Notes: a model not told the origin generated them from the letters alone. A stretch of 64,000 nucleotides of DNA from Acidobacteriota bacterium (GCA_016125275.1 WGMB01000002.1:253231-317230); one strand, 5' to 3'. Numbered from the stretch's first letter, positions 10,595 through 45,412 are shown. Program-made: numbers and translations.

Positions 10595-10609
10595 TTTGGG
10601 AGGTGCGGA

Positions 10610-15837: not shown

Positions 15838-15928
15838 AGGCCTTGATTTTGCGGCATTCCCCACAGCGCAACAACAGGCACGATGGGCGGCGTGCGTGCC
15901 GCCATGCCGGGGTAGGAGGGTCGGTCCG

Positions 15929-22034: not shown

Positions 22035-22274
22035 ATGGTCAAGATCCAAATCGGCAGGAGCACGGCGACGATCGACGGCTGGAAGTGGACGTCGGAGAAC
22101 GCGCTGCTCCAGCGCGAGCTGAATGCGCTGCTCGACCCGGCGGGACCCGAGGCGTCCGACCCGGACCCGGACTACACGGCCGCAGTGGCTGCGGTGCGCC
22201 GGTTCGACGGGGAGATCGTGGCGGTGGACGGCGCGGGCGATCCGAGCGAGCCGGATGAGGAGGCGATCTATTGA
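22035..22274 (+). CDS. Small strongly acidic hypothetical protein, 79 aa
   Basis: 16 Asp/Glu vs 6 Lys/Arg, counted from the translation. Lies 3 nt after the MuF stop, and its stop overlaps the scaffold start. Confidence 0.5.
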   Translation: MVKIQIGRSTATIDGWKWTSENALLQRELNALLDPAGPEASDPDPDYTAAVAAVRRFDGEIVAVDGAGDPSEPDEEAIY

Positions 22275-27110: not shown

Positions 27111-27479
27111 ATGAAGCTGCAACTGAAGAAAGGGGCTCAGCCGGTACGGCATCGCCGGGCCGGGATCGAGCTGCACTTCGAGCCGGGCAAGCCGGTGGAC
27201 CTGCTCGTGGTGCTCGTGGAGCCGGCCTTCGAGGGCGCGCTCGCGGCCGCCGGGGGCGACCTGAAAAAGGCCGACCTGCGCGGCGTGGACGCCATTCTCA
27301 AGCGGGCTCCGGCGCTGTGCCGCGAGCTGCTCAAGAAGCTGCCCGTGGAGCTACTCGACGAGATGCCGGTGGAGCTGGGCCTCGAGGACGTGATCACGCT
27401 CGAGGCCGTTGAGCCGGAACGTCCGGCCCCGGCCAAGCCGGCGAAGGCCAAGGCCGCCAAGGAGGGAGAGGATGCCTGA
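27111..27479 (+). CDS. Hypothetical protein, 122 aa
   Basis: Clean ORF with a Lys/Ala/Pro-rich C-terminus. Confidence 0.4.
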   Translation: MKLQLKKGAQPVRHRRAGIELHFEPGKPVDLLVVLVEPAFEGALAAAGGDLKKADLRGVDAILKRAPALCRELLKKLPVELLDEMPVELGLEDVITLEAVEPERPAPAKPAKAKAAKEGEDA

Positions 27480-29466: not shown

Positions 29467-29867
29467 CGGCCCAGACCCGTGTCTGCGACGCGGCGGAGCT
29501 GGGCAAGTGGTTGGAGCAGTGGATCGAGTGGCGGGCGACGGAGCCGACGAGCGATGAGCTGGACAAGATTCGAGACGAGCTGGGGGACGACGCGGTGCGG
29601 CGCAAGCTGCGCCAGCGACCGGCGCCGGACCTGCCGCTCGGCGTCGACGAGTGGTGCCGCCACCTCAGCCGCCTCGAGGAGCTGGCGAGCGCAGGCTGCC
29701 AGTTCGGCCTTGACGACCTCACGGCGGCTGAGTGGCGCGGGCGGTCGGCTTATCGCGCGGCGCGCGAACGCTTCTGGCGTCGCTACCGGCCCTGCCCGGG
29801 CTGCGAGCGGCCGATCTTGAGGATCGCGCGAGGGCACGACTGCGGATGGCGGAGCAGTGAGCAGTGA
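29463..29867 (+). CDS. Hypothetical tail-assembly-region protein, 134 aa
   Basis: ATGA-coupled. The C-terminus carries CPGCERP...HDCGW. Its last codons run into heptamer array 5. Confidence 0.45.
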   Translation: MTAQTRVCDAAELGKWLEQWIEWRATEPTSDELDKIRDELGDDAVRRKLRQRPAPDLPLGVDEWCRHLSRLEELASAGCQFGLDDLTAAEWRGRSAYRAARERFWRRYRPCPGCERPILRIARGHDCGWRSSEQ

Positions 29868-29889
29868 GCAGTGAGCGGTGAGCAGTTAG
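29855..29889 (+). repeat. Heptamer tandem array copy 5: CAGTGAG x3, CGGTGAG, CAGTTAG
   Basis: Read directly. Immediately followed by the GGAGG of the next gene. Confidence 0.9.
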
Positions 29890-30184: not shown

Positions 30185-32911
30185 ATGGCCGACCGCGTCC
30201 GCATCGTCATCGACGTCGAGGGAGAGGACCAAGCGCGCCGCGCCTTGCAGGGCGTGCAGTCCGAGCTGGCCGGCGTGCAGAAGGCCGCCGGCGCGGGTTC
30301 CGGCCCGGGCGCGGGCGCCAAGCTCTCCGCGCGGGAGCTGTTCCCCGAGCTCGGCGAGATGGAGGAGCGCCTGCACAAGATGCAGGACACGCTCCGCGAG
30401 ACGCCCAAGGCGGCGGGCGTGGCGGCGGACGGGTTGGCCGGGTTCAACGTGGCGGCGGGCGCGACGGCGGCCGCGGCGGTGGCTGCGGCGGCGGTGATCG
30501 GCGGGACTTTGACGAACGCCGTGCGGGCCTTCGGTGAGACCAAGGAAGGCAAGATCGCGCTCGACGACTTGGAGAAGTCGGCGCACCGGGTCTCCGATGC
30601 TTTCGGCCGACAGTTTGCGACAGAGGTTCGCCTCGGTGTCGACGTGCTCGACACCGTCGTCGACAAGGCCGGTAAGAGCACGGTCGGCATGGAGGCCCTG
30701 GCCAACGCAGTGCGCGGGATCGTGCCGGGGAACCTGGCCTATCTGGCGCGGGACCTCGGCAACGTTTACGCCTACCTGAAGGGGATCGACGACGAGACCG
30801 CGAACAAGGTCATCGGCGGGCAAGCCAAGAAAGCGCAGGATCGGGGCTTTGAAGGTTTGCAGGCGCAGGCCGAGCAGGACCGCCTGGCCGCGCTACGCCT
30901 GGCTGAGCGGCGGCAAACGGAGATCCGACAGCAGCAGATCGAGGAGGCGCGCCGCCAGGAGAGCCTGCGGCAATCGCTGGGCGACTTGGCCGCCGGCGAT
31001 GATCCCGAGCTGCGCCGGGCCTTCGCCAACGAACAGAGGCTGCGGCAGATCGCGCAACTGGTGGAGAACAACGCGGAAATCATGAAGGGCGCCGACGACG
31101 AGGTGACCCGACAGTTCGAGGCGAACCGCGAGAAGCAGGTGACGGCGGCCCAGGAGGCCATCGAGCGGATCCAGATCGCGAACCTGACGGGGGAAGAAAG
31201 GATTCGCGCTCAGGGGCAGGCGACCCTCGATCAGATCGCGCGGCTGGAGGATGGTAAAACCGAGCTGGCGGCGACGGCCGCGGCTGCGCGCGTCGAAGTG
31301 AACGCGAACACGGAGCGCGAGATTACCGAGTTTCGCGCGCGCCAGGAAGAAGAGCGCCAGCGGCTGACGGAACGGACGGAACGGGATCGGCTCCGCAGCT
31401 TCGAGCGCATCCAGCGCGAACAGCAGCGGGTCGAGGCTGCGGTCCTTGCCCTCGAGCGCGACGCCAGGTACGCAAGCCTCGATGTATTCGGGCGCATCGA
31501 GCAGAAGCGGCAAGACGACATCGCAAAGATCGAGAACGACAAGGACGCGTCCGCGTCGCAAGTCGAACGCGCCCGCCGCGCGGCCGCGATCACCGCGAGC
31601 GCCGATATCCGCGACGCGAATCAGCGCATCTTCGACGAGCAGCAGGCGCAGCTCGACCGCGGCTTGCAGGAGTGGGAGCTGTTCTGGGACCGCGTGTCGC
31701 GGTCGGCCAACTCCACGAAGGATTTCCTCGGCAATCTAGGCGACGAGATCGCCAACAACTTTCGGCGCACCGTGATTCGGATGGTCGGCTCGCTGGTCTT
31801 CGGACAGCAGCAGGCCGCCGGCGTGACGGGCGGCTATGGAGGGTACGGCGGCGGGGGCGGCGGCGTCTTCGGCGGGATTCTCGGAGCTCTGGGCGGCGGG
31901 ATCTTTGGTGGCGCGGCGGGCGTGGGCGGGTACGGCGGCGTGGGCGGGCTGGCGACGCCGCCCTTCGTGCTCAACGGATTCCCTGGCTCGACGCCTCCGT
32001 TCGTCGTCGGCGGCGGGATCGGAGCCGGCCGTGCGGGCTCGATCCCCGGGCTGGGCTACCCCTCGGCGGCGGGCGTTGGCGGCGGCCTGCTGCAGAACCC
32101 GGCCGCTGGGCTCGGCCTGTTGCTCGGCCTAACGGGGGGGACGCCGGGGTCGGCGGCTCTCCGCGCCACCATCGGCATCGCCGGCGGCACGGCGGCCTTT
32201 GGTGCGGCCGCGGGCGTCGCCGGCGGAATCGGCGCGCTCGGCGGCATCGGTACGGCTTTCCTGGGCCTCGCCACCAACCCGATCGGGCTGGCCGTGCTGG
32301 GCGGCGTGGTGGGCGTCTCGGCTCTGCTCGGCGCGCTGTCGAGGGGCGGCAAGAAGCGCCAGGCGGCCGGGGTGGCGAACGAAGGCTTCGCGGTGATCGA
32401 CGACACGGTCGACGCCTTCAAGCATCGCGAGGTGCGCTACGACCAGGCCGTGACGCAGATGGACCGCCAGTGGCAGTCCATGGTGGAGGCCTGGAACCGC
32501 ATCGGCGGCAGCGTGGGCCGCAACTCGATCCGGACGCAGGAGCCCTACTACGAGCAGCGCCTCGACGAGGTTGACCGCATCCAGGAGGAGCGCCTGCGGC
32601 GGCTGGATGCGATCGAGCAATCCCCCGTGCCGGCGTTTGCGCTGGGCGGGCTGGTGCCGGGCGCCGGGGCCGTGCCGGCCATCGTGCACGGCGGCGAGTA
32701 CGTGGTGCGGCGCGAGGCGGTGCAGCAGATCGGGCCGGCCGCGCTCGACAGCTTGAACCGAGGCGGCGGCATGGGAGGCGACGTGACGATCAACATCAAC
32801 ATCAACGGCGGCGACGCCGCGGGCCTGGCGCGCTACGTGCGCTCGGGCGAGCTCGAGAACGCCGTGGGCCGCGCGGTCCGCAACCTGCGCCGCGACGGGA
32901 GGCTGCGATGA
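30185..32911 (+). CDS. Tail tape-measure protein, 908 aa
   Basis: Long coiled-coil region, Gly-rich/hydrophobic central block (GGYGGYGGGGGG...). Size and position are typical. Confidence 0.8.
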   Translation: MADRVRIVIDVEGEDQARRALQGVQSELAGVQKAAGAGSGPGAGAKLSARELFPELGEMEERLHKMQDTLRETPKAAGVAADGLAGFNVAAGATAAAAVAAAAVIGGTLTNAVRAFGETKEGKIALDDLEKSAHRVSDAFGRQFATEVRLGVDVLDTVVDKAGKSTVGMEALANAVRGIVPGNLAYLARDLGNVYAYLKGIDDETANKVIGGQAKKAQDRGFEGLQAQAEQDRLAALRLAERRQTEIRQQQIEEARRQESLRQSLGDLAAGDDPELRRAFANEQRLRQIAQLVENNAEIMKGADDEVTRQFEANREKQVTAAQEAIERIQIANLTGEERIRAQGQATLDQIARLEDGKTELAATAAAARVEVNANTEREITEFRARQEEERQRLTERTERDRLRSFERIQREQQRVEAAVLALERDARYASLDVFGRIEQKRQDDIAKIENDKDASASQVERARRAAAITASADIRDANQRIFDEQQAQLDRGLQEWELFWDRVSRSANSTKDFLGNLGDEIANNFRRTVIRMVGSLVFGQQQAAGVTGGYGGYGGGGGGVFGGILGALGGGIFGGAAGVGGYGGVGGLATPPFVLNGFPGSTPPFVVGGGIGAGRAGSIPGLGYPSAAGVGGGLLQNPAAGLGLLLGLTGGTPGSAALRATIGIAGGTAAFGAAAGVAGGIGALGGIGTAFLGLATNPIGLAVLGGVVGVSALLGALSRGGKKRQAAGVANEGFAVIDDTVDAFKHREVRYDQAVTQMDRQWQSMVEAWNRIGGSVGRNSIRTQEPYYEQRLDEVDRIQEERLRRLDAIEQSPVPAFALGGLVPGAGAVPAIVHGGEYVVRREAVQQIGPAALDSLNRGGGMGGDVTINININGGDAAGLARYVRSGELENAVGRAVRNLRRDGRLR

Positions 32912-33348
32912 CGACGCTGCGTAACGCGCTGCCGGCGCTGCTGCTGCTGACTGCTGCGGCGGCCTGGGCCGGCAAGGTGCTGGACCACACCTTCCCGGCG
33001 ATGGCGACGACGGGGGCTTGCTCGGACACCCTGGCCGAATGCATCGCCTCGGGCGAGGTGCTGGACCTGGGCAAGCTCGACGTGGTGACGCTCGGCGTGC
33101 AGATCAATCCGACGGGCGACCCGACCGGCTGTGCGCTGGCGCTGGAGGGGAGCTTGGACGGCGAGAGCTGGATGGTGATGGGCTCCACGTCGGACTGCAC
33201 CGCGGACGCGCTGTGCGCCGGCGGCTCGGCCTGCCGCATGGTGGGCAGCGAGGCGCGCCTGGTGCGTTACGTGCGGCCGAACCCGACGACGCTGAGCGGC
33301 GGCACGACGCCGAGCCTCACGGTGATCCTGCGCGGGGTGACGCGATGA
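32908..33348 (+). CDS. Signal-peptide protein, 146 aa, Cys-rich beta-type
   Basis: MTTLRNALPALLLLTAAAAWA|GK. ATGA-coupled to the tape-measure stop. Confidence 0.55.
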   Translation: MTTLRNALPALLLLTAAAAWAGKVLDHTFPAMATTGACSDTLAECIASGEVLDLGKLDVVTLGVQINPTGDPTGCALALEGSLDGESWMVMGSTSDCTADALCAGGSACRMVGSEARLVRYVRPNPTTLSGGTTPSLTVILRGVTR

Positions 33349-35042
33349 GGAGGCTTGCGGCGCTCTTCCTGCTGCTGGCGCTGCCGGCGGCCGCGCAGTG
33401 GACGGTGAGCGGGCCGACGGGCACGGGCGGCGGCGGAGGCGGCGGGGCTTCGACGCTCGACGAGCTGACCGACGTGAACACGAGCGGGGCTGTCGATGGC
33501 TCGCTGCTGACGCTGAGCGGCTCGGACTGGGTTCGGGCGGCGAACCTGCTGCTGTCCGGCACGCAGTGGCAGGTGGGCGACGGGACCGATGGCTCGATCA
33601 AGCTCGGGGATTCGGAGGTCGTCATTCGCCGGCGATCCGGCGGCGGGCTGGAGGCGATCGACCCGCGGCCGACGATCGGCGCGACCATCTTCCGCGTCAC
33701 TTCCGGAGCGGCCGACAGCGGCGGCACGCCGTTGCTGGCGATCAACAACGGGTCGACCGATGTGATCACGCTGCAGAACAGCGGGCTGGTCTACTCGTCG
33801 ACTGGGTTTCGGGTCGGGACCAACTTCAACCTCAGCGGCGCGACCTGGCAGCTCGGCAGCACGGTCGAATCTTGCTGGGCGAACTCGGCGAGCTACACCG
33901 CGACCAAAGACGTCGGGATCATGCGCGGGGGCGTGGGCGTCGCGAAGCTCACGAACTGCGCCGGTGGTTACGGCGGAATCGACCTGGGAAGCATTAAGGT
34001 CAGCGGCTCGGCGCTCGGCTTTACGCACTTGACGGGCTCGATCGCCAACGGCCAGGTGCCGGAGAGCGCTGTGACGCAGCACGCGGACGCCGTCGGCGAT
34101 GCGATAACCACGATTGGTGGCATCTGCACGGTCGGCGGAACCGGAATCTCCTGCCCGACGTTCACGGCGTCCGGCTCCGGGCCGATCGCCATCACGGAGA
34201 TCGCCGCCCCGGGAGCCGGCGGGAGCGCCGGCGTCGCGAACTTCTACATCGACTCGACGACGCACCGGCCTGCGATCCACCTGAATGGAGGCTCCGCCAA
34301 AGACCTGGTCGCTGCGGCCGACGTCCAGACCCTGACGGGCAAGACGATCGACGGGAACTCGAACACGCTGCAGCCGCGGCATGTCGCCAACTGCGCGGCC
34401 GAAACCGGCGGCGTGGTCGGCGAGGCCTGCGTCGACACCGATAACGGCGACACCTACCGCTGCATCCCGTCGAGCGGCGCGTGCGACACGGCCGCGGAGT
34501 GGGTGCTGACGGCGCGGGCTACGCTGTGGCACTCGATCAACTTCTTTAGCCCCGGCGGCGCCGGCTTTGGAACCGCCCAGCCTCAGCTTGTGGGCTGCCA
34601 AGGTAGCGGCACCGTGGTTTCCGGCGGCCAGTACGTGGTCGAGTTCTCTGACTCGGCCTCGGACTACATGTGGTGCAACTTCATCCTGCCGAGCTTCGTG
34701 GACGACACGGTTGCTCCGGTGGTCTTGTTCGCCGTCGGCGGCCCCGTGACCAGCACCGGGCACTTCCAGATGAGCGTCAAGATCGGTTGCTACACGGGGT
34801 CGTCTGACGCTTGGCCGGAGCCGGACTGGGGAAGCGCTCAGCCGGTGACCTGTGACAAGAGCTCAAGCGTCGCGAAGCTCCCGGTCATGTGCGAGGTGAC
34901 GCCTCCCTTGACCGGATCGAACTGGACAGCCGGACAGGCTTGCGCAGTCTTCGTGCAGCGGCTTGGCTCGGACGGCGCTGACGACTTGACTCCGACCGGC
35001 GACGCCTACCTGATGGCGCTCGAGATGGAGGTGCCGCAGTGA
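33345..35042 (+). CDS. Tail-fibre-like protein with N-terminal signal peptide, 565 aa
   Basis: MRRLAALFLLLALPAAAQ. Fibre-type motifs STLDELTDVNTSGAVDGSLLTL and VQTLTGKTIDGNSNTL. ATGA-coupled. Confidence 0.55.
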   Translation: MRRLAALFLLLALPAAAQWTVSGPTGTGGGGGGGASTLDELTDVNTSGAVDGSLLTLSGSDWVRAANLLLSGTQWQVGDGTDGSIKLGDSEVVIRRRSGGGLEAIDPRPTIGATIFRVTSGAADSGGTPLLAINNGSTDVITLQNSGLVYSSTGFRVGTNFNLSGATWQLGSTVESCWANSASYTATKDVGIMRGGVGVAKLTNCAGGYGGIDLGSIKVSGSALGFTHLTGSIANGQVPESAVTQHADAVGDAITTIGGICTVGGTGISCPTFTASGSGPIAITEIAAPGAGGSAGVANFYIDSTTHRPAIHLNGGSAKDLVAAADVQTLTGKTIDGNSNTLQPRHVANCAAETGGVVGEACVDTDNGDTYRCIPSSGACDTAAEWVLTARATLWHSINFFSPGGAGFGTAQPQLVGCQGSGTVVSGGQYVVEFSDSASDYMWCNFILPSFVDDTVAPVVLFAVGGPVTSTGHFQMSVKIGCYTGSSDAWPEPDWGSAQPVTCDKSSSVAKLPVMCEVTPPLTGSNWTAGQACAVFVQRLGSDGADDLTPTGDAYLMALEMEVPQ

Positions 35043-35263
35043 TGGCGCTGAGCCCCGTGCTGCTGTGGTGGCTGCTGTTGGCGCCGCAGGCGACGCTGCA
35101 AGGCATGTCGCTGACCGGCGGCTCGGTGGGCGTGGAGGTCGGCGAGCAGAGCGCGCCGGCGACGTCGACGAGCGTCTGCGACGGGCTGCCTGGCGCGGAC
35201 CCCGTGCAGGTGGGCGACCTGGTGGACTGCTTCGGGGGCGATCGGGCTCTTTTGACGCGATGA
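35039..35263 (+). CDS. Small hydrophobic-N-terminus protein, 74 aa
   Basis: MMALSPVLLWWLLLAPQATLQG. ATGA-coupled on both sides. Confidence 0.4.
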   Translation: MMALSPVLLWWLLLAPQATLQGMSLTGGSVGVEVGEQSAPATSTSVCDGLPGADPVQVGDLVDCFGGDRALLTR

Positions 35264-38200
35264 GGCTCCTGGCCCTAGCACTGCTTGGCGCGTTGCGGCT
35301 GGGAGCGGCCTGCGACGTGGCGTCGTTCGTGATCACGGAGGCGCCCGGGGATACCTGGGTTTCCGCCACGGTCGAGTTCGGCGATGGCCTCAATGCGTCC
35401 ACGGTCGATTTCGTTCGGCTGGCGCGGGCGGTGAGCCCCAGCGTCGACGTCGCGGACATCCCCGGCACGGGCTGGACGACCGGCGGCGCGGCGGTCGGGA
35501 CCAAGCGGTTCGCGGGCGCGCAAGACTTGACCGCGTCGACCACGTACAACTTCGTCCCGCAGCTCTCGGTGGACAACGGGTCGAGCTACGCGCTCGACTA
35601 CGAATCGACCGACTGCCAGGCGGCGCTCTGCCCGTATGGCGAGGGGCCGCAGGCCGATGAAATGGAGGAGATCGACCTCGGCTATTCGTGCGTCGCGAAC
35701 GGCTCCGGCAAGCTGATTCCGCAGTTCACCACGGACAGCAACGGCGGAATGCCGACGCCGGCCGCGCCGACGCACTCGATCAGCCTCAGCGACTTCTCCG
35801 CGGTGACCGGGGAAACCCGCGTCGGGTCGGTGACCGACGGGCTGTGCACCGATTGCGACGCCCTGCTGGCCGACGCCCTCGCGGACGCGTCGGCGGGCGG
35901 TCTGGTCGAGGGGCTCCAGCTCCCGGCCGGGGCGACGTGGCGGCCGGGGAGCTCCGGGGCGGGCATCAACCTTGCGGGGCAGACCAGCGACACCGGCGCC
36001 GTGATCATCCTGGGCAGCGCGCCGGACCCTGACGCCCTGCCGGCGTTGGGCGAGGCGGCCGACCCGAGCCTGGCCGACGTGATGAGCGTGATCGAGTTCT
36101 ACCCGGACGCGGCCTCGCGCTTGACCTCGTTGCTCTACGCCAGCGCGGCGTCGAAGCGCATCCGGATCCAGAACGTTGTGCTGCGAATCCCCGACGTCGA
36201 GGACATCGCCGACGTCGAGTATGAGATCACCAGCGTCAACGACGCCGGCTCGTACGTGCAGCTCTCGGTGGACGGGACGATCCCGGCGGGCGAGCTGGAC
36301 GGCTCGTCGTACTCGACGCTGATCGGCGTCTACGCCGACGGCTTCGAGGGCTGGAGCTTCCGCTACGGCGCGGCGGCCCAGCGGCAGAGCGGCGGGGCGA
36401 TCGCGGGCGTCGCCGTGGCGGAGCCCGCGGGCATCGGCAATTTCACCACGGGCTGGGTAGTGGACTCTGTCTCGAAGCCGTTCGCGTCCGCCACCAAAGC
36501 GAGCGAGCCGGTGCTGACGCTGCCGAGCCCGCACCGCTGGATCGACGGCTACGCGGAGGCCTTGACCGGCTGCTCGTCGGGTACCTGCACGGCGGCTGAC
36601 GGCTCGCACGTCCAGCAGGTGGGGACGGGCTTCCATCCGACGTACCAGATCACGGGTTCGAGCGGCGGAGCTTGCGATGGGTTCTTCGTGGAGGCCGGCG
36701 GATCGCAGGCCTCCGGGACGTTCGTGCTCACCGATGTTCCGGACTGCACCGGCGGCTCGATCAAGCGGGTGGGGACGGCGCTGCTGTCGCACCTGCAGAA
36801 CGTGACGAGCAACCCGCTGGCGCGGTCGTGCATCGTCACGTTCCCAAGCGCGACCGAGGTGAAGCTCTGGCGCTGCCGCGGGGCGGGCTCGACGATCACG
36901 CCGGACTGGTCGGCCGAGAGCGGCACGATCAGCGGCCGCATCAGCTACGGGGCCGAGGACTTCGCGCCGCTGGTCAACTTGACCAACATGCAGCAGGTGA
37001 TCATCGAGCGCTGCATTCTGCGGTCGCCGGGGCCGCCGGTTCGCATCAACAAGCTGATCGCCGGCGGCGGCGCGTCGCAGGTGATCGTCGCCAACAACTA
37101 CATCGACGGGGTCGTCTCGGCGCACCCGATCGACCCGGTGAGCGGGCACCTGGGCGGCCAGTACCGCAACAACTACGGCTTCGACGTGACGACGCTCTAC
37201 GACGGCTCGCAGGCGTCGGACGTGCAGATCGTGGGCAACACGGTGGTCAATTGGATGGGCTTCTTCTGGTTCGCGCCGAACGGGCCGACGCGCGTGAATC
37301 ACCCGGCGGATATCACGATCAGCCGCAACCGCTTCATCGTGCCGCTCGAGCTAGTGGGCGACTCCCCGGTGAACTACGGGATCGTCGACAACGCGCGCCA
37401 GGGGAATGAAGACAAGGACGGCGTGGAGCGGAAGAGGTTCAGCGGCAACAGCGTGCTGGGCTATCCGATCATCGGCGTGAACGCGGCGCACATCCTGGTC
37501 TTCCAGGACCTGCCGCACAGCTCCATCACGACACCGAGGCGGCTCCAGGACATCGGCGTCTACAGCAACATCCTCGAGGGCGGCCAGATCGTCTCCGCCG
37601 GCGCTGTGTCGTATGACGGCTCGATCGCCCCGGACATCCGGGCGCCGCGCAACATCGCGGTCCGGAACAATCTGATCCACGGCAAGGAGACGGTCGGCTA
37701 CCCGAACAACCAGCAGCTGCTGAACCGCGACGCCTGGACGCCCTATTCGGGCGGCAACTCCGTGTTCCGGCGGATCGCGAACATCGACTACAGCTACAAC
37801 ACCCACATCCGCCCCGCGACGGCGCTGCAGCCGGCCAGTGCGGTCTTCATGAACGGCGAGTCGTATGTGTCTCGGATCAACGTCGAGGGCAACATCTGGG
37901 AGCACAGCCCCAACGGGTATGACGCCTTCTGGGTGACGAATCTGGGCGGCGGCAGCGAGGCCAACGGGTGGAACAAGAACTACACCCAGGACGGCGCGCA
38001 ACCTTCGCCGCTGGCGAGCAAGGCCGACAATATCCGGCTGCCGTGCACCACGGACCCCGGCATCACGGACTACGACAGCGACAACAGCGCCGACAGTGAG
38101 AGCGATGCCTCCGCGCTGGGAGCCTACTCCGGCTGGTCCGCGCCGGCCGGCAGCGCGGATGCGCAGTCCTGCAAGGACCGCGAGGAACTGGTGTTCGCGG

Positions 38201-38541
38201 CCGGGACCTGGCAGGCCGCCGGCGACTATGCCGGGCTCGGCGCGGACATCCCGACTCTGCTGACGGAGCACCGCAAGATCAGCGGCGCGCCCGCGATCAC
38301 GCGCTCGAATACGACGGTGAGCGTGGCCTTCACGGCTCCCACGGCGGGCGAGGCGTGCCACATGCGGATGCGGGCGACTAGCGCGGGCAACGGCGGCGCG
38401 TGGACGAGCTGGACCGCGACGACGGGCTCGACGGCGCGGACCGTGCAGGCCACGGGCTTGACGCCGGCGACGAGCTACGACTTTCGGCTGAGCTGCGAGG
38501 GCGGCCAGGCTCCCCTGTTTGGGCAGGTGACGACGCTATGA
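35260..38541 (+). CDS. Large right-handed beta-helix (pectate-lyase-like) + C-terminal FN3 protein with signal peptide, 1093 aa (tailspike/depolymerase-like)
   Basis: MRLLALALLGALRLGAAC. Recurrent turns VIVANNYIDG, IVGNTVVNW, ISRNRFIV, VRNNLIHG, VEGNIWEH. C-terminus ...TVSVAFTAPT...ATGLTPATSYDFRLSC is FN3-like. Confidence 0.55.
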   Translation: MRLLALALLGALRLGAACDVASFVITEAPGDTWVSATVEFGDGLNASTVDFVRLARAVSPSVDVADIPGTGWTTGGAAVGTKRFAGAQDLTASTTYNFVPQLSVDNGSSYALDYESTDCQAALCPYGEGPQADEMEEIDLGYSCVANGSGKLIPQFTTDSNGGMPTPAAPTHSISLSDFSAVTGETRVGSVTDGLCTDCDALLADALADASAGGLVEGLQLPAGATWRPGSSGAGINLAGQTSDTGAVIILGSAPDPDALPALGEAADPSLADVMSVIEFYPDAASRLTSLLYASAASKRIRIQNVVLRIPDVEDIADVEYEITSVNDAGSYVQLSVDGTIPAGELDGSSYSTLIGVYADGFEGWSFRYGAAAQRQSGGAIAGVAVAEPAGIGNFTTGWVVDSVSKPFASATKASEPVLTLPSPHRWIDGYAEALTGCSSGTCTAADGSHVQQVGTGFHPTYQITGSSGGACDGFFVEAGGSQASGTFVLTDVPDCTGGSIKRVGTALLSHLQNVTSNPLARSCIVTFPSATEVKLWRCRGAGSTITPDWSAESGTISGRISYGAEDFAPLVNLTNMQQVIIERCILRSPGPPVRINKLIAGGGASQVIVANNYIDGVVSAHPIDPVSGHLGGQYRNNYGFDVTTLYDGSQASDVQIVGNTVVNWMGFFWFAPNGPTRVNHPADITISRNRFIVPLELVGDSPVNYGIVDNARQGNEDKDGVERKRFSGNSVLGYPIIGVNAAHILVFQDLPHSSITTPRRLQDIGVYSNILEGGQIVSAGAVSYDGSIAPDIRAPRNIAVRNNLIHGKETVGYPNNQQLLNRDAWTPYSGGNSVFRRIANIDYSYNTHIRPATALQPASAVFMNGESYVSRINVEGNIWEHSPNGYDAFWVTNLGGGSEANGWNKNYTQDGAQPSPLASKADNIRLPCTTDPGITDYDSDNSADSESDASALGAYSGWSAPAGSADAQSCKDREELVFAAGTWQAAGDYAGLGADIPTLLTEHRKISGAPAITRSNTTVSVAFTAPTAGEACHMRMRATSAGNGGAWTSWTATTGSTARTVQATGLTPATSYDFRLSCEGGQAPLFGQVTTL

Positions 38542-39122
38542 GCACGGCCGACACGTTCCCGATCGAGATGGAGTTCTCGTCGTCGTTGACGCAGGGCGCC
38601 GGCGTGGCGACGTTCCGGTGCGTGGGCGGCGAGGAGATCTCGCGCATCGTGGAGCCGTTCGCGCGGATCTTCTCGGGCACGGCCGCCCAGCGGCCCAAGG
38701 CCGACGCGATGGCGGTGCTCGAGTTCTACCAGCGCATGGGCGAGGAGTTCTTTTCGTTCGAGGACCCGCTGACCGGCCGTACTTGGTCGGCGGTGTGGGC
38801 GTCGCCGCCCCGGATCGGCTTTGTGGGGTACGAACGCTACGACATCGAGGTGCAGCTCCGCGAGGCCGCCGGCAAGCCGCTGGCGAGCTATCCGACCACG
38901 CCGCTACTCGAGCGGCCGCTCGACCCCGTCGACGTCGGCGACGGCCTGCTGTTCTTTTACTCGGGCTACGGCTACAAGCTCACGGCCACGGGCGTCTCGA
39001 CGGCCGAGCTCGACGGCGCGAGCTCGTCGACGAGCTCGAACTATTCGGTCCCGCTGGGGGCGCATTGCTTGAAGGTGCTGCCGAACTCGGCCAGCGTGAC
39101 GAAGTTGGAGGTGGTGCACTAG
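38538..39122 (+). CDS. Minor/distal tail protein (gpM-position), 194 aa
   Basis: ATGA-coupled. Lies immediately upstream of the L-like and J-like genes. Positional assignment only. Confidence 0.4.
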   Translation: MSTADTFPIEMEFSSSLTQGAGVATFRCVGGEEISRIVEPFARIFSGTAAQRPKADAMAVLEFYQRMGEEFFSFEDPLTGRTWSAVWASPPRIGFVGYERYDIEVQLREAAGKPLASYPTTPLLERPLDPVDVGDGLLFFYSGYGYKLTATGVSTAELDGASSSTSSNYSVPLGAHCLKVLPNSASVTKLEVVH

Positions 39123-39499
39123 TGGCGAAGGTCCTGAATCGCCTGCAGGTCCCGTCGATCGAGGAGCTGGCCGGCGCTGTGATCGACGACTATCTCCAGC
39201 AACGCGGCCCGGTGCTGGACCTGAAAAACCCTGAGCACGTCTCTGCGCTCACGCGCTTGATCGATAGCCGATTGCGGGGCAGCCAGATGGAGCTGCAGGC
39301 GGCCGCCGAGAAGGCTTGTTCCCAGGCGCTCCAACACGTTTGGGCGCTCATGTCGGACCCCGACTATCAAGCCAACCGGCAGCGATCGCGCCGCGAACGC
39401 ATGCGGCGACAGTCAGCGCCGCTAGAGATGGCGGAGAAGTACGGGCTGAACCCCGCAAAGATCCGAGAGGCCGCCTCGGACGCCCGGAGGAAACGCTGA
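39122..39499 (+). CDS. Hypothetical tail-region protein, 125 aa
   Basis: GTG at 39122 overlaps the previous stop. Helical, with a basic C-terminus. Confidence 0.35.
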   Translation: MAKVLNRLQVPSIEELAGAVIDDYLQQRGPVLDLKNPEHVSALTRLIDSRLRGSQMELQAAAEKACSQALQHVWALMSDPDYQANRQRSRRERMRRQSAPLEMAEKYGLNPAKIREAASDARRKR

Positions 39500-40158
39500 T
39501 GGCGCGCACCCTCTCCACCGCGATCGCCGCCGCGGCCGCCTCCGGACGGGCGATGCTCGTGCACGCCCTGTATCTCTCGCTGGGCGGCGTGGACTACTTC
39601 TACGCCGAGCGCGCCATCACCTTCGAGTCGCAGGCCTACCAGGTCGGGCTGCGCTGGTCCGAGGACCTGACGCTGCGCCGCAGCCTGGCGGCCGACACGG
39701 TTCAGGTCGAGGTCGAGAACGTTTCGCTCGGCCTGGCGCAGATCCTGCGTCAGCAGTACGTGATGGGCGACTACGGCGAGCTGCGCCGCCTGTGGCTGGG
39801 CGCGGGCTCGCAGATCGTCTTCGCCGGCCGCGTCGGCGCCGTCGAGGTCGATCGCAACTCGGCGCGCCTGACGCTGCGCAGCCACATCGACCCGCAGGCG
39901 CAGCTCCCCATCCGGACGCCGGGCGCCAAGTGCCCCTGGAGGTTCAAGGGAACGGCCTGCGGCTACGTGGGCGTGGGCGACGAGTGCGACAAGACCACCG
40001 ACGCCTGCATTGCCTACTCCAACATCCACCGCTTCGGCGGGTTCCCCACGCTGACGCGCGAGCTGGCGGAGACCGTCGCGCCGGCGCCCGTGGCGGAGCC
40101 GATCGCGCCCGAGCGGGATTTCTTATCCGACTACTACGGCGAGGAGGCGACCTGGTGA
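39499..40158 (+). CDS. Minor tail protein L-like (Cys-cluster type)
   Basis: CPWRFKGTACGYVGVGDECDKTTDACIAYSNIHRFGGFP parallels the lambda gpL C-terminal Cys motif and the GGFP signature. Confidence 0.65.
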   Translation: MARTLSTAIAAAAASGRAMLVHALYLSLGGVDYFYAERAITFESQAYQVGLRWSEDLTLRRSLAADTVQVEVENVSLGLAQILRQQYVMGDYGELRRLWLGAGSQIVFAGRVGAVEVDRNSARLTLRSHIDPQAQLPIRTPGAKCPWRFKGTACGYVGVGDECDKTTDACIAYSNIHRFGGFPTLTRELAETVAPAPVAEPIAPERDFLSDYYGEEATW

Positions 40159-43145
40159 CCTTACTGCTGCTGCTTCTGGGGTGGATTTCCATGCCGACTA
40201 CGACCGCAACGCTCGAAGACTTGTTCGCCTCCGTCGATCGTCCCCTGGCCTGGGCGTATGGCCGGCACTACGTGGCCGGCAACCTGATTCTGCGCGACGA
40301 CCGCGACGACGGCTCGACCGTGCTGTTCGTCGCCCTGGGCGAGGGGCCGTGGGACGCCGTCGAGGCGCTGTGGGCCAACGGCGCGGAGGTCGCCTCCGAT
40401 CACTACCACTTCCACCCGGGCGTCGACGGCGTCGCGGGCGGCTCCGGCGTGACGGGCGACCAGAAGGCCGACCTGTGGTGGCCGCTCGACGTCTCGCCGG
40501 CGCTGACCTACTCCAAGACGGCCTACGTCGCGGTGAAGATCGACGATCCGGAGTACGCGCCGACCGACGACTTCAGCGTGCTGGGCCGCTACCGCACCCG
40601 CAAAGTGGGCGTGTACAACGCGGCCGGCTCGCAGACCTCGTTCGCCTGGAGCTCCAACCCCGTCTGGCAGATCGCCGACGTGCTGCGGGTGGGCCTGTAC
40701 GAGCTGACCACGCGGTTCAACTGGCAGGCCTTCATCGACGCGGCCGCCTACTGCGACGCCACCGTCACGGTGGACTCGATCGACTACCCGCGCTTCCAGG
40801 CCCACCACGCCTTTCCGCAGGCGACCTCGGCGCAGGACGCGCTCGAGCGGATGCTGGCCGGCTGCCGCGGCTACCTGCTCGAGGAAGACGGCCTGATCAA
40901 GATCGTGATCGACCAGCCGCGCTCGGCAGCGATGACGATCGGCCGCGGCGACATCGCCGACGGCAGCTTCCGCCACTGGATGCGCGACACCTCGGCCGCC
41001 GCGAACCGCCTGCTCGGCAAGTTCCGCGACGTGGAGAACGACTACGCCGAGGCCGAGGAGTACGTGGAGCGGGAGTGGCACCAGGCACTGATCGGGCGGC
41101 CGATCCTCAAGGAGATCGACTTCGGCGCGGCGCCGCAGAATCAGGTGCGCCGGCTGCTCGAGTACTGGGCCAGCAAGTCTCTGGACGACGCCCGCATGGT
41201 CTCGCTCGACGTCGGCATGCAGGCGGCCGCGCTCGAGCCGATGGACCGCGTCGACGTCCAGCTCGACGACGAGGCCCCCTGGCAGGGCCCGAAAGCCTTC
41301 GACGTGATCGAGATCGCCGACCGGACGGACGGCTCGCGCGGCCTGCTCCTGCAGGAGTACGACGCGGCCGCCTTTACCGACGACGGCCGCCCGCACCAGA
41401 CCGTGGAGGGCGGCGTGATCGTCGGCCCGACCACGATCCCCGCTCCGGACGTCGAGAACTTCAGCGCGACGGAGAACCCCTTCGTCACGCCCGACGGTCA
41501 GACGATCAGCCGCATCACCTACAGCTTCGACAAGCCCAGCCCGCTGCGGACCTGGGCGGCGATGGAGGTGTGGGGCCGCCGGCTCGACGACATGGACGCG
41601 CCGATCGAGGAGTACCACTTCCTCGCGAAAGACGACCAAGGACCGGGCATCATCGACTGGGACAAGGAGACCCACGGCGAGAAGCTCGAGCTGCAGGCGC
41701 GCAGCGTCTCGAAGACCGGCCGGCCGAACCCGGGCGGGCCGACCACCACCGTCACGCTCGACCAGCTCCCCAGCGCGCCGGCGCCGGTCTCGGACCTGTG
41801 GTGCCAGCAGGACGCCCAGCGCCTGATCCTGAGCTGGTACGGCGGCGCGGAGACCAACCTGAAGGGCTATGCGATCTACGAGCTCGGCGAGATCGTGCCG
41901 GCCGACGACGCGGCCGTGGCCGAGAAGTATCGGCTGGGCTTCGCGCCGCACGCCGGCGAGGGCGAGCTGCACTGGTGGGAGTTCCTCGAGCGCGACTACC
42001 GCATCATCGCTTCGGACGGGACGGTGGTCGAGCTGGAGGCTGCGGGCGGCATCGCGCTGCGCGTGGACGCGCTGATCGGCCGCAAGATCACGTTCCTCGA
42101 CCCGACCGGCGAGATCGAGCTGACGGCGCTGGACAACGATGAGCGCACGATCACGTTCGCCACGGGCACGGCGCCGACGCAGATCAACATGCCGGTGCGC
42201 ACGCGGCCCAAGTCCGGCGAGCGGCACTTCTACGTGCGGGCGCAGGATTCGCTCGATCAGCTCTCGACGGCCAAGCCCGTGCCGCCGGCGACGCTGGCGT
42301 GCTTTCCGTTCGCGCGGGATGGCTCGAAGGACGTCGGGCCGCCGCGGATGTGGCTGACGGCCTCGAGCTTCCAGGGGACGCAGTGGTCCAGCGGTCCGCT
42401 GGCGGCGCAGACCGGCCATGTGAACGTGTGGGGCGCCGTGCGCTCGGCGGCCGAGGACGAGAGCGACTTCGACCTGGCGCTGAAGCAGAACATCAACGGC
42501 GTGAGCGAGTGGCGGGTAGAGATCGACATCAGCACGACGTCGGCGGGCCCGACCACTGACACGCGCGTGTTCGGCGTGCCGGCGGCCAACGCGCCGGGCA
42601 ACTACTACTACAACCCGCTGGTCGGCCCGCCGGCGGAAAAGTTCTGGATCTTGTTCGAGTTCCTGGGCTCGTTCTACCTGCCGAATGTCTACATCCAGGA
42701 AGTGCGGGTGCAGGCGAAGAACGCCGCCGGCGGATGGTCAAGCCTGACGACCGCGCGGCCGATCTTCATGAGCCCGGGCCAGGAGTACACCGGTGAGATC
42801 GCCGGCATGCGGGCCTCGAGGACAGTGACGCCCGTCTCGAGCGTGATCGACGAGAACCCCGTGCAGAGCGCCGGTACGGTGCAGACGGTCAGCGTGCCGG
42901 CGGCGACCACGACCTACATCGATTTCCCGTCGACGGCTCCCCTCGCCGGCGCGGAGCTGCGCTACCGCCTGGTGCAAGGGGCCACGCCCGGCACGATCAT
43001 CTTCCGCGACGCCAACGGCGGCGTGTGGAGCCGCATGGGCGACCGCAAGGTGCCGGTGGAAGCCGATACGACCACCTGGTGCAAGTTCTACGCAGTCAGC
43101 GCAACGGAGCTCGAGCTATGCCGCATGGACACTTTCTACGCCTAG
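40155..43145 (+). CDS. Host-specificity / central tail fibre protein J-like (start GTG 40155 or ATG 40191)
   Basis: About 990 aa. ...WSSNPVWQIADVLRVGLYELTTRFNWQAFIDAAAYCD... is typical of the gpJ/Phage-tail_3 family. Lies after the L-like gene. Confidence 0.7.
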   Translation: MTLLLLLLGWISMPTTTATLEDLFASVDRPLAWAYGRHYVAGNLILRDDRDDGSTVLFVALGEGPWDAVEALWANGAEVASDHYHFHPGVDGVAGGSGVTGDQKADLWWPLDVSPALTYSKTAYVAVKIDDPEYAPTDDFSVLGRYRTRKVGVYNAAGSQTSFAWSSNPVWQIADVLRVGLYELTTRFNWQAFIDAAAYCDATVTVDSIDYPRFQAHHAFPQATSAQDALERMLAGCRGYLLEEDGLIKIVIDQPRSAAMTIGRGDIADGSFRHWMRDTSAAANRLLGKFRDVENDYAEAEEYVEREWHQALIGRPILKEIDFGAAPQNQVRRLLEYWASKSLDDARMVSLDVGMQAAALEPMDRVDVQLDDEAPWQGPKAFDVIEIADRTDGSRGLLLQEYDAAAFTDDGRPHQTVEGGVIVGPTTIPAPDVENFSATENPFVTPDGQTISRITYSFDKPSPLRTWAAMEVWGRRLDDMDAPIEEYHFLAKDDQGPGIIDWDKETHGEKLELQARSVSKTGRPNPGGPTTTVTLDQLPSAPAPVSDLWCQQDAQRLILSWYGGAETNLKGYAIYELGEIVPADDAAVAEKYRLGFAPHAGEGELHWWEFLERDYRIIASDGTVVELEAAGGIALRVDALIGRKITFLDPTGEIELTALDNDERTITFATGTAPTQINMPVRTRPKSGERHFYVRAQDSLDQLSTAKPVPPATLACFPFARDGSKDVGPPRMWLTASSFQGTQWSSGPLAAQTGHVNVWGAVRSAAEDESDFDLALKQNINGVSEWRVEIDISTTSAGPTTDTRVFGVPAANAPGNYYYNPLVGPPAEKFWILFEFLGSFYLPNVYIQEVRVQAKNAAGGWSSLTTARPIFMSPGQEYTGEIAGMRASRTVTPVSSVIDENPVQSAGTVQTVSVPAATTTYIDFPSTAPLAGAELRYRLVQGATPGTIIFRDANGGVWSRMGDRKVPVEADTTTWCKFYAVSATELELCRMDTFYA

Positions 43146-44656
43146 CGTTGCTGCTGTGTCTGCTGGCGCTGCCGGCGGCCGCGCAGCGCTCGCGCATCCC
43201 GCTCGAGCAGACTGCCGGCGGCACGGCCGGCGACCTCTGCTTCAAGGATGACGCCGGCAGCGAGGTCTGCTGGAGCATGCCGGACGGGACGTTCGGCAGC
43301 GGCCGCTGGATCTTGCCGCCGTCGGACATCGGCGGAGGCGGCTGCTTGACCACGGACGGGAGCCGCACTGTGACGGTGAGCGCCTGCAGCGGCGGAAGCG
43401 GCTCGGCCGGCTCCGACGGCGCCGTGCAGCTTTCCGACGGCATGGGCGGGTTCCGGACGGCGCTGATGATCCTGGACGATGTGACGCCACTGCTCTACGT
43501 CTCGGCCAGCCAGAGCTTCGGCACGCTTTCGGGCCGGTACTTTCAGGGGCTGGACAGCGGAGCGAACACGCGGAAATTCCTGTCGGTGGACGCCAACGAC
43601 AAGCTGCACCTGGGGCTGGAAAACGCCGTCGGCACGGGCACGGTCGTGCTGCACACTTTAGGCAACACAATCGAGCTGCCTGATTCGTTCGTCCCTCCGG
43701 ACGCCGCCGGGAACAACTTCCTCAAGTTCAACTCCAGCGGCAAGGCGACCTGGGATGCGATCGCCGGCGTCGACGTCAGCAATACGCTGTCGGGACTGAC
43801 GCCCCGCGGGACGATCAACTTCGATCAGAGTCTGCTGGCGACGGACAACGTCACCCGGATCGACGTAAAGATCGACCCGGCGGGCATCACGACTTACACG
43901 CGAGCGCAGGGCTTCGAGGGCGGCACGCGAGGCAAGGTGGGCGGCGGCGGGTCGGACAACGACGACCTGGGCGCCGGGCTCGACAGCGGAGCCAGCTACT
44001 CCCGCACTCCCTTCCGCCGGGCCTTCGTCCGCGAGTACGTGCAGGCGCTGCAGACGGTGTGGGCCCCGGCCACCACGGATATCTCGAGCTCGCCGCTCTA
44101 TTGGCGGGCGGGCTACATCGGCTCGGGCGTCTACGGCCTGAGCTGGGAGCGCAACGGCGTGCAGCTCGCCTACTGGGACGGCAACGGGTTCGAGTTCTAC
44201 AAGGACGTGAAGGCGCTCAGCGGCGCGTCGGTGGTCCACACGGCGACGACCACGGACCTGAGCACGCAGCTCACCACGCGGCTGCAGAAGCAGGCTAGCT
44301 CGACCAGCGGAGACGCGATCAAGCTCGAGGACGTCTTCGGCACGGTGTACCTGTCGGCCGGCTACAACAGCGGCGGCGTGGGCAACGGCGGCGTGCTGAC
44401 GGTACAGCGCGCCGGGCTGGAGACGGTGGGCATCTGGTCGACGGGCTCGGACGCGACGCGCGGGCTGTATGTCGGGGTGACCGGCAGCTCGAGCACGAAC
44501 CGGGTGGTCGGACCGCGGCTTTCGGCCGTGGCCGACGTGAGCGGGACGGCCGGCGGCACGTATACCTCGACCGAGCAGAGTCTGCTCAACAGCGTGAAGA
44601 CGCAGCTCAACCTGGTGCTGAGCCGGCTGCGCACGCACGGGCTGATTGCGCCCTAG
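43118..44656 (+). CDS. Tail-fibre-like protein with N-terminal signal peptide, 512 aa
   Basis: MPHGHFLRLALLLCLLALPAAAQ. Gly/Ser-rich fibre-like body. C-terminus ...EQSLLNSVKTQLNLVLSRLRTHGLIAP. Confidence 0.55.
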   Translation: MPHGHFLRLALLLCLLALPAAAQRSRIPLEQTAGGTAGDLCFKDDAGSEVCWSMPDGTFGSGRWILPPSDIGGGGCLTTDGSRTVTVSACSGGSGSAGSDGAVQLSDGMGGFRTALMILDDVTPLLYVSASQSFGTLSGRYFQGLDSGANTRKFLSVDANDKLHLGLENAVGTGTVVLHTLGNTIELPDSFVPPDAAGNNFLKFNSSGKATWDAIAGVDVSNTLSGLTPRGTINFDQSLLATDNVTRIDVKIDPAGITTYTRAQGFEGGTRGKVGGGGSDNDDLGAGLDSGASYSRTPFRRAFVREYVQALQTVWAPATTDISSSPLYWRAGYIGSGVYGLSWERNGVQLAYWDGNGFEFYKDVKALSGASVVHTATTTDLSTQLTTRLQKQASSTSGDAIKLEDVFGTVYLSAGYNSGGVGNGGVLTVQRAGLETVGIWSTGSDATRGLYVGVTGSSSTNRVVGPRLSAVADVSGTAGGTYTSTEQSLLNSVKTQLNLVLSRLRTHGLIAP

Positions 44657-44680
44657 GTTTCAGAAAAGGAGACGAACGCG

Positions 44681-44842
44681 ATGTACCTGGATTTCATGCT
44701 GTTCTGGCTGCTCAGCGGCCTCGGTTTCGTGGACCCTTCGTCCTGCACGGAGGGTCCGCTGGTCCGGCGCGGCGACTTCATGGCCCCGTCGTATGTGTGC
44801 GAGGTTCACGGGATGCCGTCGCCTTCGAGGCGTCGCCGATGA
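44681..44842 (+). CDS. Small membrane protein, 53 aa (holin-like candidate)
   Basis: AAAAGGAGA lies 7 nt upstream of the ATG. Sequence MYLDFMLFWLLSGLGFV... has one TM segment. The stop forms ATGA with the next gene. It falls below the ORF-track cutoff. Confidence 0.4.
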   Translation: MYLDFMLFWLLSGLGFVDPSSCTEGPLVRRGDFMAPSYVCEVHGMPSPSRRRR

Positions 44843-45246
44843 AGCGTCTCGCGGTCTTCCTGCTGGCGGCAATCGCGGCCGCGGCCGCGGCCGCGCCTCC
44901 GGAGCTCACGCAAGCCGAGCAGCTCGCATGGACGCGGCTGGTCTCGGCGCACCGGCAGGCGCTGCTGGAGTCGGCGGAGCTGGATCGGCTGCGCCTGCGC
45001 GCCGAGCTGGCCGCTCAGCAGGCGATGACGGAAGGGCTCGAAGCCGAGCACCAGGCGCTATTGCGTCGCCTGGCGCGGACGCTGGCCGCCCGAGCCACGC
45101 TGTACGAGCTGCAGCGGCGGCCGGCGGCCGACACGCTCGAAGCGCTGAAAGAGTTTGAGGCCGAGCGCCGCGGCGAGGAGCCTTGCCGGCTCACCGACGC
45201 CGCGGTGTGGCATTGCGACGAGGGGGGCTCGGCCGACCAGCAGTAA
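44839..45246 (+). CDS. Signal-anchored coiled-coil protein, 135 aa (i-spanin-like candidate)
   Basis: MKRLAVFLLAAIAAAAAAA, followed by long heptad-like helices (LESAELDRLRLRAELAAQQAMTEGLEAEHQALLRRL) and C-terminal Cys residues. Confidence 0.35.
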   Translation: MKRLAVFLLAAIAAAAAAAPPELTQAEQLAWTRLVSAHRQALLESAELDRLRLRAELAAQQAMTEGLEAEHQALLRRLARTLAARATLYELQRRPAADTLEALKEFEAERRGEEPCRLTDAAVWHCDEGGSADQQ

Positions 45247-45341
45247 CCCGCGCCACTCGCGACACACCGCACCCGGGGCGGAGCGCAACGGTCACACGAA
45301 GCGCCCGCCCTTCGTGCGTCCAGCCCCCAAAAACGCCCCAC

Positions 45342-45412
45342 TTTGCCACCAAGAGCCGCGCACTTTGCCACGCATCACCCGCCGCGTTTGCCACCGATCG
45401 CTGCCGGCACTA
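45342..45412 (-). promoter_or_regulatory. attR end: putative transposase binding sites R1 (45387-45394), R2 (45364-45371), R3 (45342-45349)
   Basis: TTTGCCAC on the + strand (GTGGCAAA on the minus strand), spaced 22-23 bp apart. R1 ends 18 nt from the terminus, mirroring L1. Confidence 0.6.

Follow-up and report, generated by a model that had tools for sequence, protein, structure and literature searches.

Textbook assembly of tailed phages is cytoplasmic, and the phage proteins known to be exported are lysis proteins or small exclusion and conversion factors. Why, then, would a tail operon encode a series of proteins that begin with secretion leaders? This question is raised by a 64,000-nucleotide (nt) stretch of DNA from an Acidobacteriota bacterium (GCA_016125275.1, WGMB01000002.1:253231-317230), here called the window, which holds a Mu-like siphovirus prophage. 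An initial annotation had pointed out six late genes of this prophage with Sec-type signal peptides at their N-termini and had regarded such leaders inside a tail operon as unexpected; our analysis supports the view that they are unusual. We find that the leaders are translated, have the layout of cleavable Sec signal peptides and recur in a family of cysteine-rich phage proteins, and among the options considered we tentatively prefer a mobile, exported cassette with a role on the envelope side.

Leader-bearing genes of the tail module

The leader genes, all on the plus strand, lie in the tail module, some of them between the tape-measure gene and the hub gene, the others directly behind the J-like gene. 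All six N-termini quoted in the initial annotation are exact in the translations from their starts. The first gene (32908-33348) starts with an ATGA that overlaps the tape-measure stop and encodes an ORFan (an orphan open reading frame, ORF) of 146 amino acids (aa), with the leader MTTLRNALPALLLLTAAAAWA followed by G, which is positive under our n-h-c heuristic, and six cysteines in the mature part (4.1%). It is followed by the gene for a 565-aa fibre-like protein (33345-35042) with the leader MRRLAALFLLLALPAAA followed by Q. From N to C terminus this protein comprises the leader, a Gly-rich linker, fibre-type repeats, a four-cysteine motif (residues ~345-386) and a beta-sandwich (~430-565), and its mature part holds 14 cysteines. 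Its AlphaFold2 (AF2) model, based on an 18-sequence alignment, is confident only at residues 341-390 and 430-565, and the C-terminal domain has a weak Foldseek match to carbohydrate-binding modules (E~1e-3).

The third gene (35039-35263) encodes a small protein of 73 or 74 aa with two cysteines and the hydrophobic N-terminus (V)MALSPVLLWWLLLAPQATLQG, which has no basic n-region. Here the overlap with the preceding gene is GTGA, followed by an ATG at 35042 that the public gene call takes as the start, giving 73 aa. Next comes a 1093-aa protein (35260-38541) with the leader MRLLALALLGALRLGAAC and 16 cysteines after C18. It has a weak C-terminal FN3 match in Pfam (residues ~1013-1081) and no sequence match in the PDB; its family alignment (A5) contains conserved x-x-N-x-x rungs, which suggest a beta-helix, and its single-sequence AF2 model has a predicted local distance difference test score (pLDDT) of 34. 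The start of the fifth gene (43118-44656) falls, as had been annotated, within the J-like gene and overlaps its last 28 nt, up to position 43145. Its product is a 512-aa ORFan with the leader MPHGHFLRLALLLCLLALPAAA followed by Q and four cysteines in the mature part, for which a word-index search of 5.8e9 proteins gave no homologue and Pfam, PHROG and PDB searches gave no match. Downstream, a 53-aa ORF (44681-44842) has a good AGGAG ribosome-binding site, the hydrophobic N-terminus MYLDFMLFWLLSGLGFV, a C-terminal RRRR and two cysteines; its product is probably a small membrane protein. The last gene (44839-45246) encodes a 135-aa protein with the leader or anchor MKRLAVFLLAAIAAAAAAA followed by PP and two C-terminal cysteines. 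A spanin role for this protein, which does show an anchor-like N-terminus and an Ala/Leu/Glu/Arg-rich, probably helical body, was considered and rejected: no lipobox ORF lies nearby, there is no PHROG spanin match, and a weak Rz-like match sits elsewhere, at 15896-16276.

Five of the six starts had been described as ATGA overlaps with the preceding stop. Such overlaps are present at 32908, 33345, 35260 and 44839, the one at 35039 being the GTGA mentioned above, and the partner at 44839 is the stop of the previously unlisted 53-aa ORF, not that of the 43118 gene. An independent public gene call of the same contig has the same starts. The description of all six products as tail-fibre- or tailspike-like proteins goes further than the evidence supports. 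By sequence comparison, fibre homology is found only for the family of the 565-aa protein; the 146-, 74-, 512- and 135-aa proteins have no family and no fibre-domain homology in Pfam or PHROG, and the 1093-aa protein has its weak FN3 match and beta-helix-like motifs. No detectable relatives or family were found for the 146-, 512- and 135-aa proteins, and five of the six leader proteins have no family in Pfam (even at E<=10), PHROGs, NCBIfam or PDB sequence searches.

The heuristic flagged 0 of the 27 prophage genes upstream of 32908 versus eight of the ten from 32908 on (Fisher p = 1.2e-6), the eight being the six leader genes, the 53-aa ORF and, when read from its GTG start, the J-like protein. 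Among host genes it flagged a TonB-like receptor (...AYA followed by QG) and left a Tat-type amidase (SRRGLL) unflagged, both as expected. K or R stands ahead of the hydrophobic run in five of the six window leaders (35039 has none), and a hydrophobic h-region lies near the N-terminus in all six, with an Arg at position 12 in 35260. Small residues at -3/-1 are clear at 32908 (AWA then G), 33345 (AAA then Q) and 43118 (AAA then Q) and ambiguous at 35039 (LQG then M) and 35260 (GAA then C, or AAC then D). The 44839 leader may be an uncleaved anchor, because Pro-Pro after a leader is disfavoured by signal peptidase I. Two other kinds of export signal were examined and discarded. A lipoprotein signal for 35260 does not fit, as LGAAC has Gly at -3 and the homologues end in A-x-A then Q, with no Cys. 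Tat export was rejected on the grounds that the leaders are 17-22 residues long, K and R interchange in relatives and no S/T-R-R-x-F-L-K motif is present.

Two of the leaders share the 27-nt segment CTGCTGGCGCTGCCGGCGGCCGCGCAG (LLALPAAAQ), found at 33372-33398 and again, as an exact match on the same strand, at 43160-43186; this identity had been noticed earlier and read as a duplicated leader module. The segment is one of only two exact direct repeats of at least 20 nt in the 64-kilobase (kb) window, the other being a run of CAGTGAG heptamers, and 20 fifth-order Markov simulations gave no repeated 24-mer. Identity of the two copies ends sharply on both sides. The expected probability of identical codons for the same nine residues is 0.002-0.011, and a copied leader segment is therefore the better reading. 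Paralogy of the 565- and 512-aa proteins was rejected, this segment being all they share.

A wider family of leader-bearing phage proteins

In a search of 1.84 billion representative proteins, a profile built from the 565-aa protein and its homologue P0002 (described below) gave 323 relatives (E <= 0.001), each match standing for one 50%-identity cluster. Leaders were counted on the best 148 of the 323 matches. A hydrophobic leader is present in 128 of these 148, with K or R in the n-region of 120 of the 128 and a small residue followed by Gln at the leader end of 83. In the closest subfamily (alignment A4), the A-Q junction is invariant and the following N-P nearly so, while the hydrophobic core is variable. 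The same alignment shows a conserved N-terminal domain and variable C-terminal parts; the 565-aa protein of the window is without this N-domain.

The relatives sit in phage structural modules. One contig (L019) encodes a tape measure, then Dit and a LamG/baseplate-like protein, after which come three further ORFs and finally the leader protein; on another (L014), a portal and a capsid gene stand ahead of three leader proteins. Twenty IMG/VR contigs carry the cysteine motif, and at least 15 of those ORFs begin with classical leaders, at 36-71% guanine + cytosine (GC). Runs of two to five consecutive large, leader-bearing, cysteine-rich ORFs occur on L003, L007, L013, L015, L020 and L022, and L011 has a single very large one. 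Extreme examples are proteins of 1264 aa with 94 cysteines (L013, 11816-15610), 1758 aa with 70 (L011, 6050-11326) and 1304 aa with 41 (L020, 2169-6083).

The relatives match no Pfam family; against PHROGs they match phrog_7578, a family of unknown function, and scattered tail-fibre and virion-structural families. Neither the 565- nor the 1093-aa protein has a match in 50,697 cultured phage records, in which only the N-domain core of the family is matched, in Pelagibacter phages and cyanophages. Phage proteins without a leader have this core too, one example being a region of a Pelagibacter phage that is annotated 'tail tube B'. Alignment A4 found no relative in a scan of 185,579 species genomes, while the fibre family does have relatives on viral contigs.

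Could the leaders be Ala/Leu-rich N-termini that arise by chance in 70% GC DNA, or do the true starts lie downstream? High GC favours codons for Ala, Leu, Pro and Gly, and several alternative GTG/TTG starts exist. Against such an artefact, the 27 unflagged upstream genes have the same composition, leaders also occur at 36-41% GC, leader and junction are conserved in homologues, and the starts are fixed by start/stop overlaps with which the independent gene call agrees. With leaders spread over 36-71% GC, base composition therefore cannot explain them; together with the 0/27 upstream count, this led us to rule out GC content as their source, and an artefact of either kind is hardly credible.

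Paired cysteines and the nature of the leaders

The mature parts of the six window proteins hold 6, 14, 2, 16, 4 and 2 cysteines, all even numbers, at about 1-4% of residues; head and tail structural proteins have 0-0.8%. Among the leader-bearing relatives, the mature part has an even count in 114 of 128 (binomial p = 1e-20); for leaderless phage ORFs with at least three cysteines at the same loci, the figure is 65 of 147. The homologue P0002 has neither C503 nor C516 of the 565-aa protein, as expected for a disulfide pair, and leaderless relatives of the same domains have few or no cysteines. A leader coupled to paired cysteines is the signature of folding in an oxidising compartment, as in exported bacterial proteins.

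Alternatively, the N-termini might be structural or assembly anchors of tail proteins assembled in the cytoplasm, with cysteines that oxidise only after release. Precedent comes from phage Milano, whose tail proteins form an extensive disulfide network that is oxidised after release, with no signal peptides reported (PMC10811340). The J-like protein, a certain virion part, may itself start with MTLLLLLLGWISM if GTG 40155 is used, and neither the 35039 protein nor the 53-aa ORF has a basic n-region. The features of the family leaders speak against anchors: the n-h-c layout is canonical, with the basic residue (120/128) and the small-then-Gln junction (83/128) given above, the conserved part is the junction and not the hydrophobic core, and the leader sequences otherwise vary freely, as signal peptides do. 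Moreover, leaderless relatives of the same domains exist, and the domains therefore need no hydrophobic anchor. Anchors of this sort are thus improbable in our estimate, and the hydrophobic N-termini are very probably genuine Sec export signals of the signal peptidase I type; actual export and cleavage we infer from these sequence features. The host is a diderm, as indicated by a YidC with a periplasmic domain and a Tat-signal amidase among the host genes, and a Sec leader would therefore deliver its protein to the periplasm.

A cassette shared between phages

The word-index search returned a single homologue of the 565-aa protein in 5.8 billion proteins (P0002, 51% identity over the C-terminal 55%) and none of the 1093-aa protein. 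The contig of P0002 (L002) encodes, in this order, the tape measure, a tail protein of 613 aa that has no leader, P0002 with the leader MRLAILALLGVLAMHA followed by Q, a 77-aa homologue of the 74-aa protein that starts MSAVLLLWLHLLAPQSVISG, and a homologue of the 1093-aa protein (E 6e-22) with the leader MRLPILLLLLAVPALA followed by Q. The fibre/small/large order is repeated on L023, 3' of a terminase gene, and a fibre/small pair lies 3' of a homologue of the 613-aa protein on L024; homologues of the 74-aa protein, the conserved middle gene of the cassette, hold the same position on all three contigs. Leaders persist in the cassette homologues while their sequences diverge, and the 1093-aa homologues on L002 and L023 both have leaders ending in A-x-A then Q. 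From these arrangements, the three genes form a cassette that moves between phage genomes. In the window it follows the tape measure; on L002 and L024 it comes behind the LamG tail protein of 613 aa, and on L023 behind the terminase. This change of place fits a self-contained function.

Several phages encode a large tail protein that has a LamG-type 'LLHFDG'-like domain and no leader (1825-3666 on L002, 1-1110 on L024 and 6738-8495 on L019). On L002 and L024 the leader-bearing fibre gene comes directly after it; on L019 it is also upstream of that gene, with a few ORFs in between. It is a candidate docking partner if the fibres attach to virions.

Role of the exported proteins

In the explanation that we favour, the tail operon would yield the proteins at a late stage of the lytic cycle, their translation being coupled to that of the tape-measure and J-like genes, and they would be threaded unfolded through SecYEG to the diderm periplasm. 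There they would be cleaved, mostly at a small-x-small motif followed by Gln or Gly, and folded with disulfide bonds. The 565-aa, 74-aa and 1093-aa (probable beta-helix/FN3) proteins would form a mobile cassette recurring in unrelated phages, with the fibre-like protein carrying a carbohydrate-binding-type distal domain. Rather than being built into the tail in the cytoplasm, the cassette would act outside it as free glycan-binding or glycan-cutting factors, with envelope or exopolysaccharide receptors on the infected cell as targets and, once lysis has occurred, debris and matrix. We tentatively put the probability of such a free, glycan-targeting accessory role, on the envelope side or extracellular, at roughly 0.45. 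A free role is favoured because the cassette is portable, self-contained and shifts position relative to the core tail genes.

Several points weigh against this reading. The glycan-binding idea is built on a weak Foldseek match to a half-confident model, and the beta-helix call for the 1093-aa protein has sequence motifs as its sole basis. The leader classifier is a simple home-made n-h-c heuristic, and three leaders are atypical, the one at 35039 being without a basic n-region, the one at 35260 having an Arg within the hydrophobic run and the one at 44839 being followed by Pro-Pro. Even cysteine counts would equally fit virion proteins oxidised after release, as in Milano (PMC10811340). Finally, fibre-type domains, a conserved N-domain with variable C-parts, a position in the tail module and genes that are tightly coupled in translation, among which no promoter- or terminator-like site was seen, are what one would expect of virion fibres more than of free factors.

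These last features bring up the possibility that the proteins are true side fibres matured in the periplasm, that is, exported and disulfide-bonded, and docking on finished tails when holin lesions and lysis mix cytoplasm and periplasm. Besides their fibre-type domains, the relatives include PHROG matches to 'tail fiber' and 'virion structural protein' families; the conserved N-terminal domain, ahead of variable distal parts, shares its core with leaderless phage proteins, and the genes stand at the end of the tail module in the window, L002, L019 and L024. About 7 kb of a headful-limited genome of ~40 kb would be a high price for accessories, and T4 tail fibres can attach to particles in lysates. 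To our knowledge, no tailed phage has a Sec-exported virion protein, and our literature search, which is no proof of absence, found no Sec-exported fibre-like tailed-phage protein. Also at odds with virion fibres, the position of the cassette varies between phages (it lies beside a terminase gene in L023), the 565-aa window protein is without the conserved N-domain, and a central fibre is already supplied by the J-like protein. Periplasm-matured virion fibres are on balance unlikely, and we find it equally doubtful that tailed phages of several phyla send a class of fibres through Sec for periplasmic disulfide folding, to join tails only at lysis.

The proteins might also be lysogenic-conversion morons, exported by the resting prophage to alter the host surface through adhesion, phage exclusion or matrix remodelling. 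Classic morons (lambda lom and bor, cor, T5 llp) likewise specify exported products and neighbour tail-fibre genes, and the 53-aa and 135-aa genes lie at the prophage end, a typical cargo site. Signal-peptide genes of Porphyromonas gingivalis phages, of unknown function, have been read in this way (PMC10367356). In the window, on the other hand, four genes are coupled by ATGA or GTGA to the tape-measure gene and to one another, no promoter-like and no convincing terminator-like sites were found (the promoter scan being weak for this host), and base composition is as in the rest of the prophage (GC 0.67-0.72). The scans of 185,579 species genomes gave no relative of the J-like protein or the fibre family, the latter having its relatives on viral contigs. 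A conversion role is quite improbable on this evidence.

What is new here is the presence, inside a tail operon, of large, fibre-like, cysteine-rich proteins with canonical export signals that recur in uncultured phages. As free factors they would constitute a new type of phage-encoded secreted glycan-targeting tool, of relevance to the masking of receptors, the degradation of matrix and the prediction of host range. If they were virion parts, tailed-phage assembly would not be purely cytoplasmic, and the finding would then be categorically new. Either way, they call for caution with annotations that label such genes 'tail fibre' and use them in host prediction.

Prophage and host context

The window DNA has ~70% GC, and coding frames were defined by third-position GC. 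Pfam and PHROG matches delimit a transposable Mu-like siphovirus of ~40 kb on the plus strand (~5.3-45.4 kb), and the Mu-like character proposed in the initial annotation is supported by the transposase, MuB-like ATPase, Gam, Mu portal, Mu F and protease I. All genes listed here are on the plus strand. Pfam/PHROG matches identify the Mu-type transposase (6031-8178), the MuB-like ATPase (9548-10552), Gam (10583-11089), a gp27-like protein (16618-17232), the large terminase (17229-18614), the Mu portal (18621-20096), Mu F (20431-22032) and protease I (22271-23329). Protease I is followed by a cement-like protein (a weak match under the Pfam cut-off) and capsid proteins, then by the tail tube (27409-28482, weak match) and the tape measure (30185-32911), to whose stop the leader-gene cassette is translationally coupled. 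The core tail-tip genes (38538-43145) comprise a 194-aa ORF, a 125-aa ORF, a 219-aa hub-like protein (39499-40158; weak Gp84_N/BR0599 matches under Pfam cut-offs) and the 996-aa J-like protein with a Phage-tail_3 domain (40155-43145).

The public gene call starts the J-like gene at the GTG at 40155, which comes with a GAGGAGG ribosome-binding site and overlaps the preceding gene as GTGA. From this start the protein begins with a hydrophobic stretch without a basic residue, which the ATG at 40191 would drop. Relatives in cultured phages are distant only and align from residue ~26 onwards; there is no close relative in IMG/VR and none in the scan of 185,579 species genomes.

The right end of the prophage lies at ~45400, with three TTTGCCAC repeats at ~45330-45407; the terminal CCACCGATC is inverted relative to GATCGGTGG at the left end (~5299), and no obvious 5-bp target duplication was seen at these probable ends. 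Host genes lie beyond, which makes the 135-aa gene the final one of the prophage. Two intergenic places (10560-10591 and 29855-29886) contain the same 32-nt run of CAGTGAG heptamers (CAGTGAGCAGTGAGCAGTGAGCGGTGAGCAGT), one copy just 5' of gam and the other just 5' of the tail chaperone/tape-measure genes; the run may serve the prophage in regulation. Three small plus-strand genes at 15280-16617, just 5' of the terminase genes, hold the position of the Mu lysis genes. They include a 126-aa ORF (15896-16276) with a weak match to Rz-like spanins (E 0.004) and a 185-aa ORF with no family match in these searches. At 17336-18436, minus-strand ORFs whose GC at third positions is very high are antisense shadows of the gene for the large terminase, an example of how ORF lists mislead in this DNA. 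Among the host genes, the amidase (54403-55929, minus strand) starts with SRRGLLLAGAAAAAAS, of twin-arginine type with SRRGLL, in contrast to the short Sec-type leaders of the phage.

Comparison with known systems

Exported proteins near tail genes and Sec-dependent lysis proteins are already known; a large, cysteine-rich, fibre-like exported class was not found in the literature. Lambda Lom and Bor, Cor of T1, phi80 and N15, and Llp of T5 are likewise encoded by signal-peptide genes in or near the tail or host-range region and act at the envelope. They differ in being lipoproteins or small proteins of the outer membrane, most of which have expression signals of their own, and in being neither fibre-like nor cysteine-rich nor part of a multi-gene cassette; Pfam and PHROG comparisons revealed no sequence similarity between them and the leader proteins. 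Sec-exported or signal-anchor-release (SAR) endolysins and spanins (Rz/Rz1) are also late phage proteins that use the host Sec system, and spanins form periplasmic disulfides, but these serve lysis cassettes, and none of the six window proteins matches a lysis family. The pIII protein of filamentous phages resembles the leader proteins as a receptor-binding virion protein with a cleavable signal peptide and periplasmic disulfides; it belongs to non-tailed, membrane-assembling phages and has no homology to them, whereas the element here is a Mu-like siphovirus.

Outside phages, WceF of Pantoea stewartii is an exported enzyme with a tailspike fold that trims exopolysaccharide (PMC7949094) and thus shows a tailspike-like protein crossing the inner membrane to reach a surface glycan. 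Unlike the window proteins, it has a Tat signal and is encoded by a chromosomal gene in a polysaccharide synthesis cluster, and the fold of the 1093-aa protein is a prediction only. The Gln junction recalls the Bacteroidetes 'Q-rule', by which signal peptidase I substrates expose an N-terminal Gln (PMC5837995); the same junction is seen in 83 of the 128 leader-bearing relatives and in two of the six window proteins. A few phage genes of Porphyromonas gingivalis with Q-rule leaders, of unknown function, have been reported (PMC10367356), although these concern one host genus, and no widespread family or cassette of cysteine-rich, fibre-like proteins was described there. At 70% GC in the window, a classical Bacteroidetes host is unlikely. 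Closest in domain content are canonical fibres (the phrog_7578 N-domain and leaderless ORFs on L027-L058), which share the N-domain core and TLTNKTIDG-type repeats with the leader-bearing family, but those on L027-L058 carry no leader and only 0-6 cysteines.

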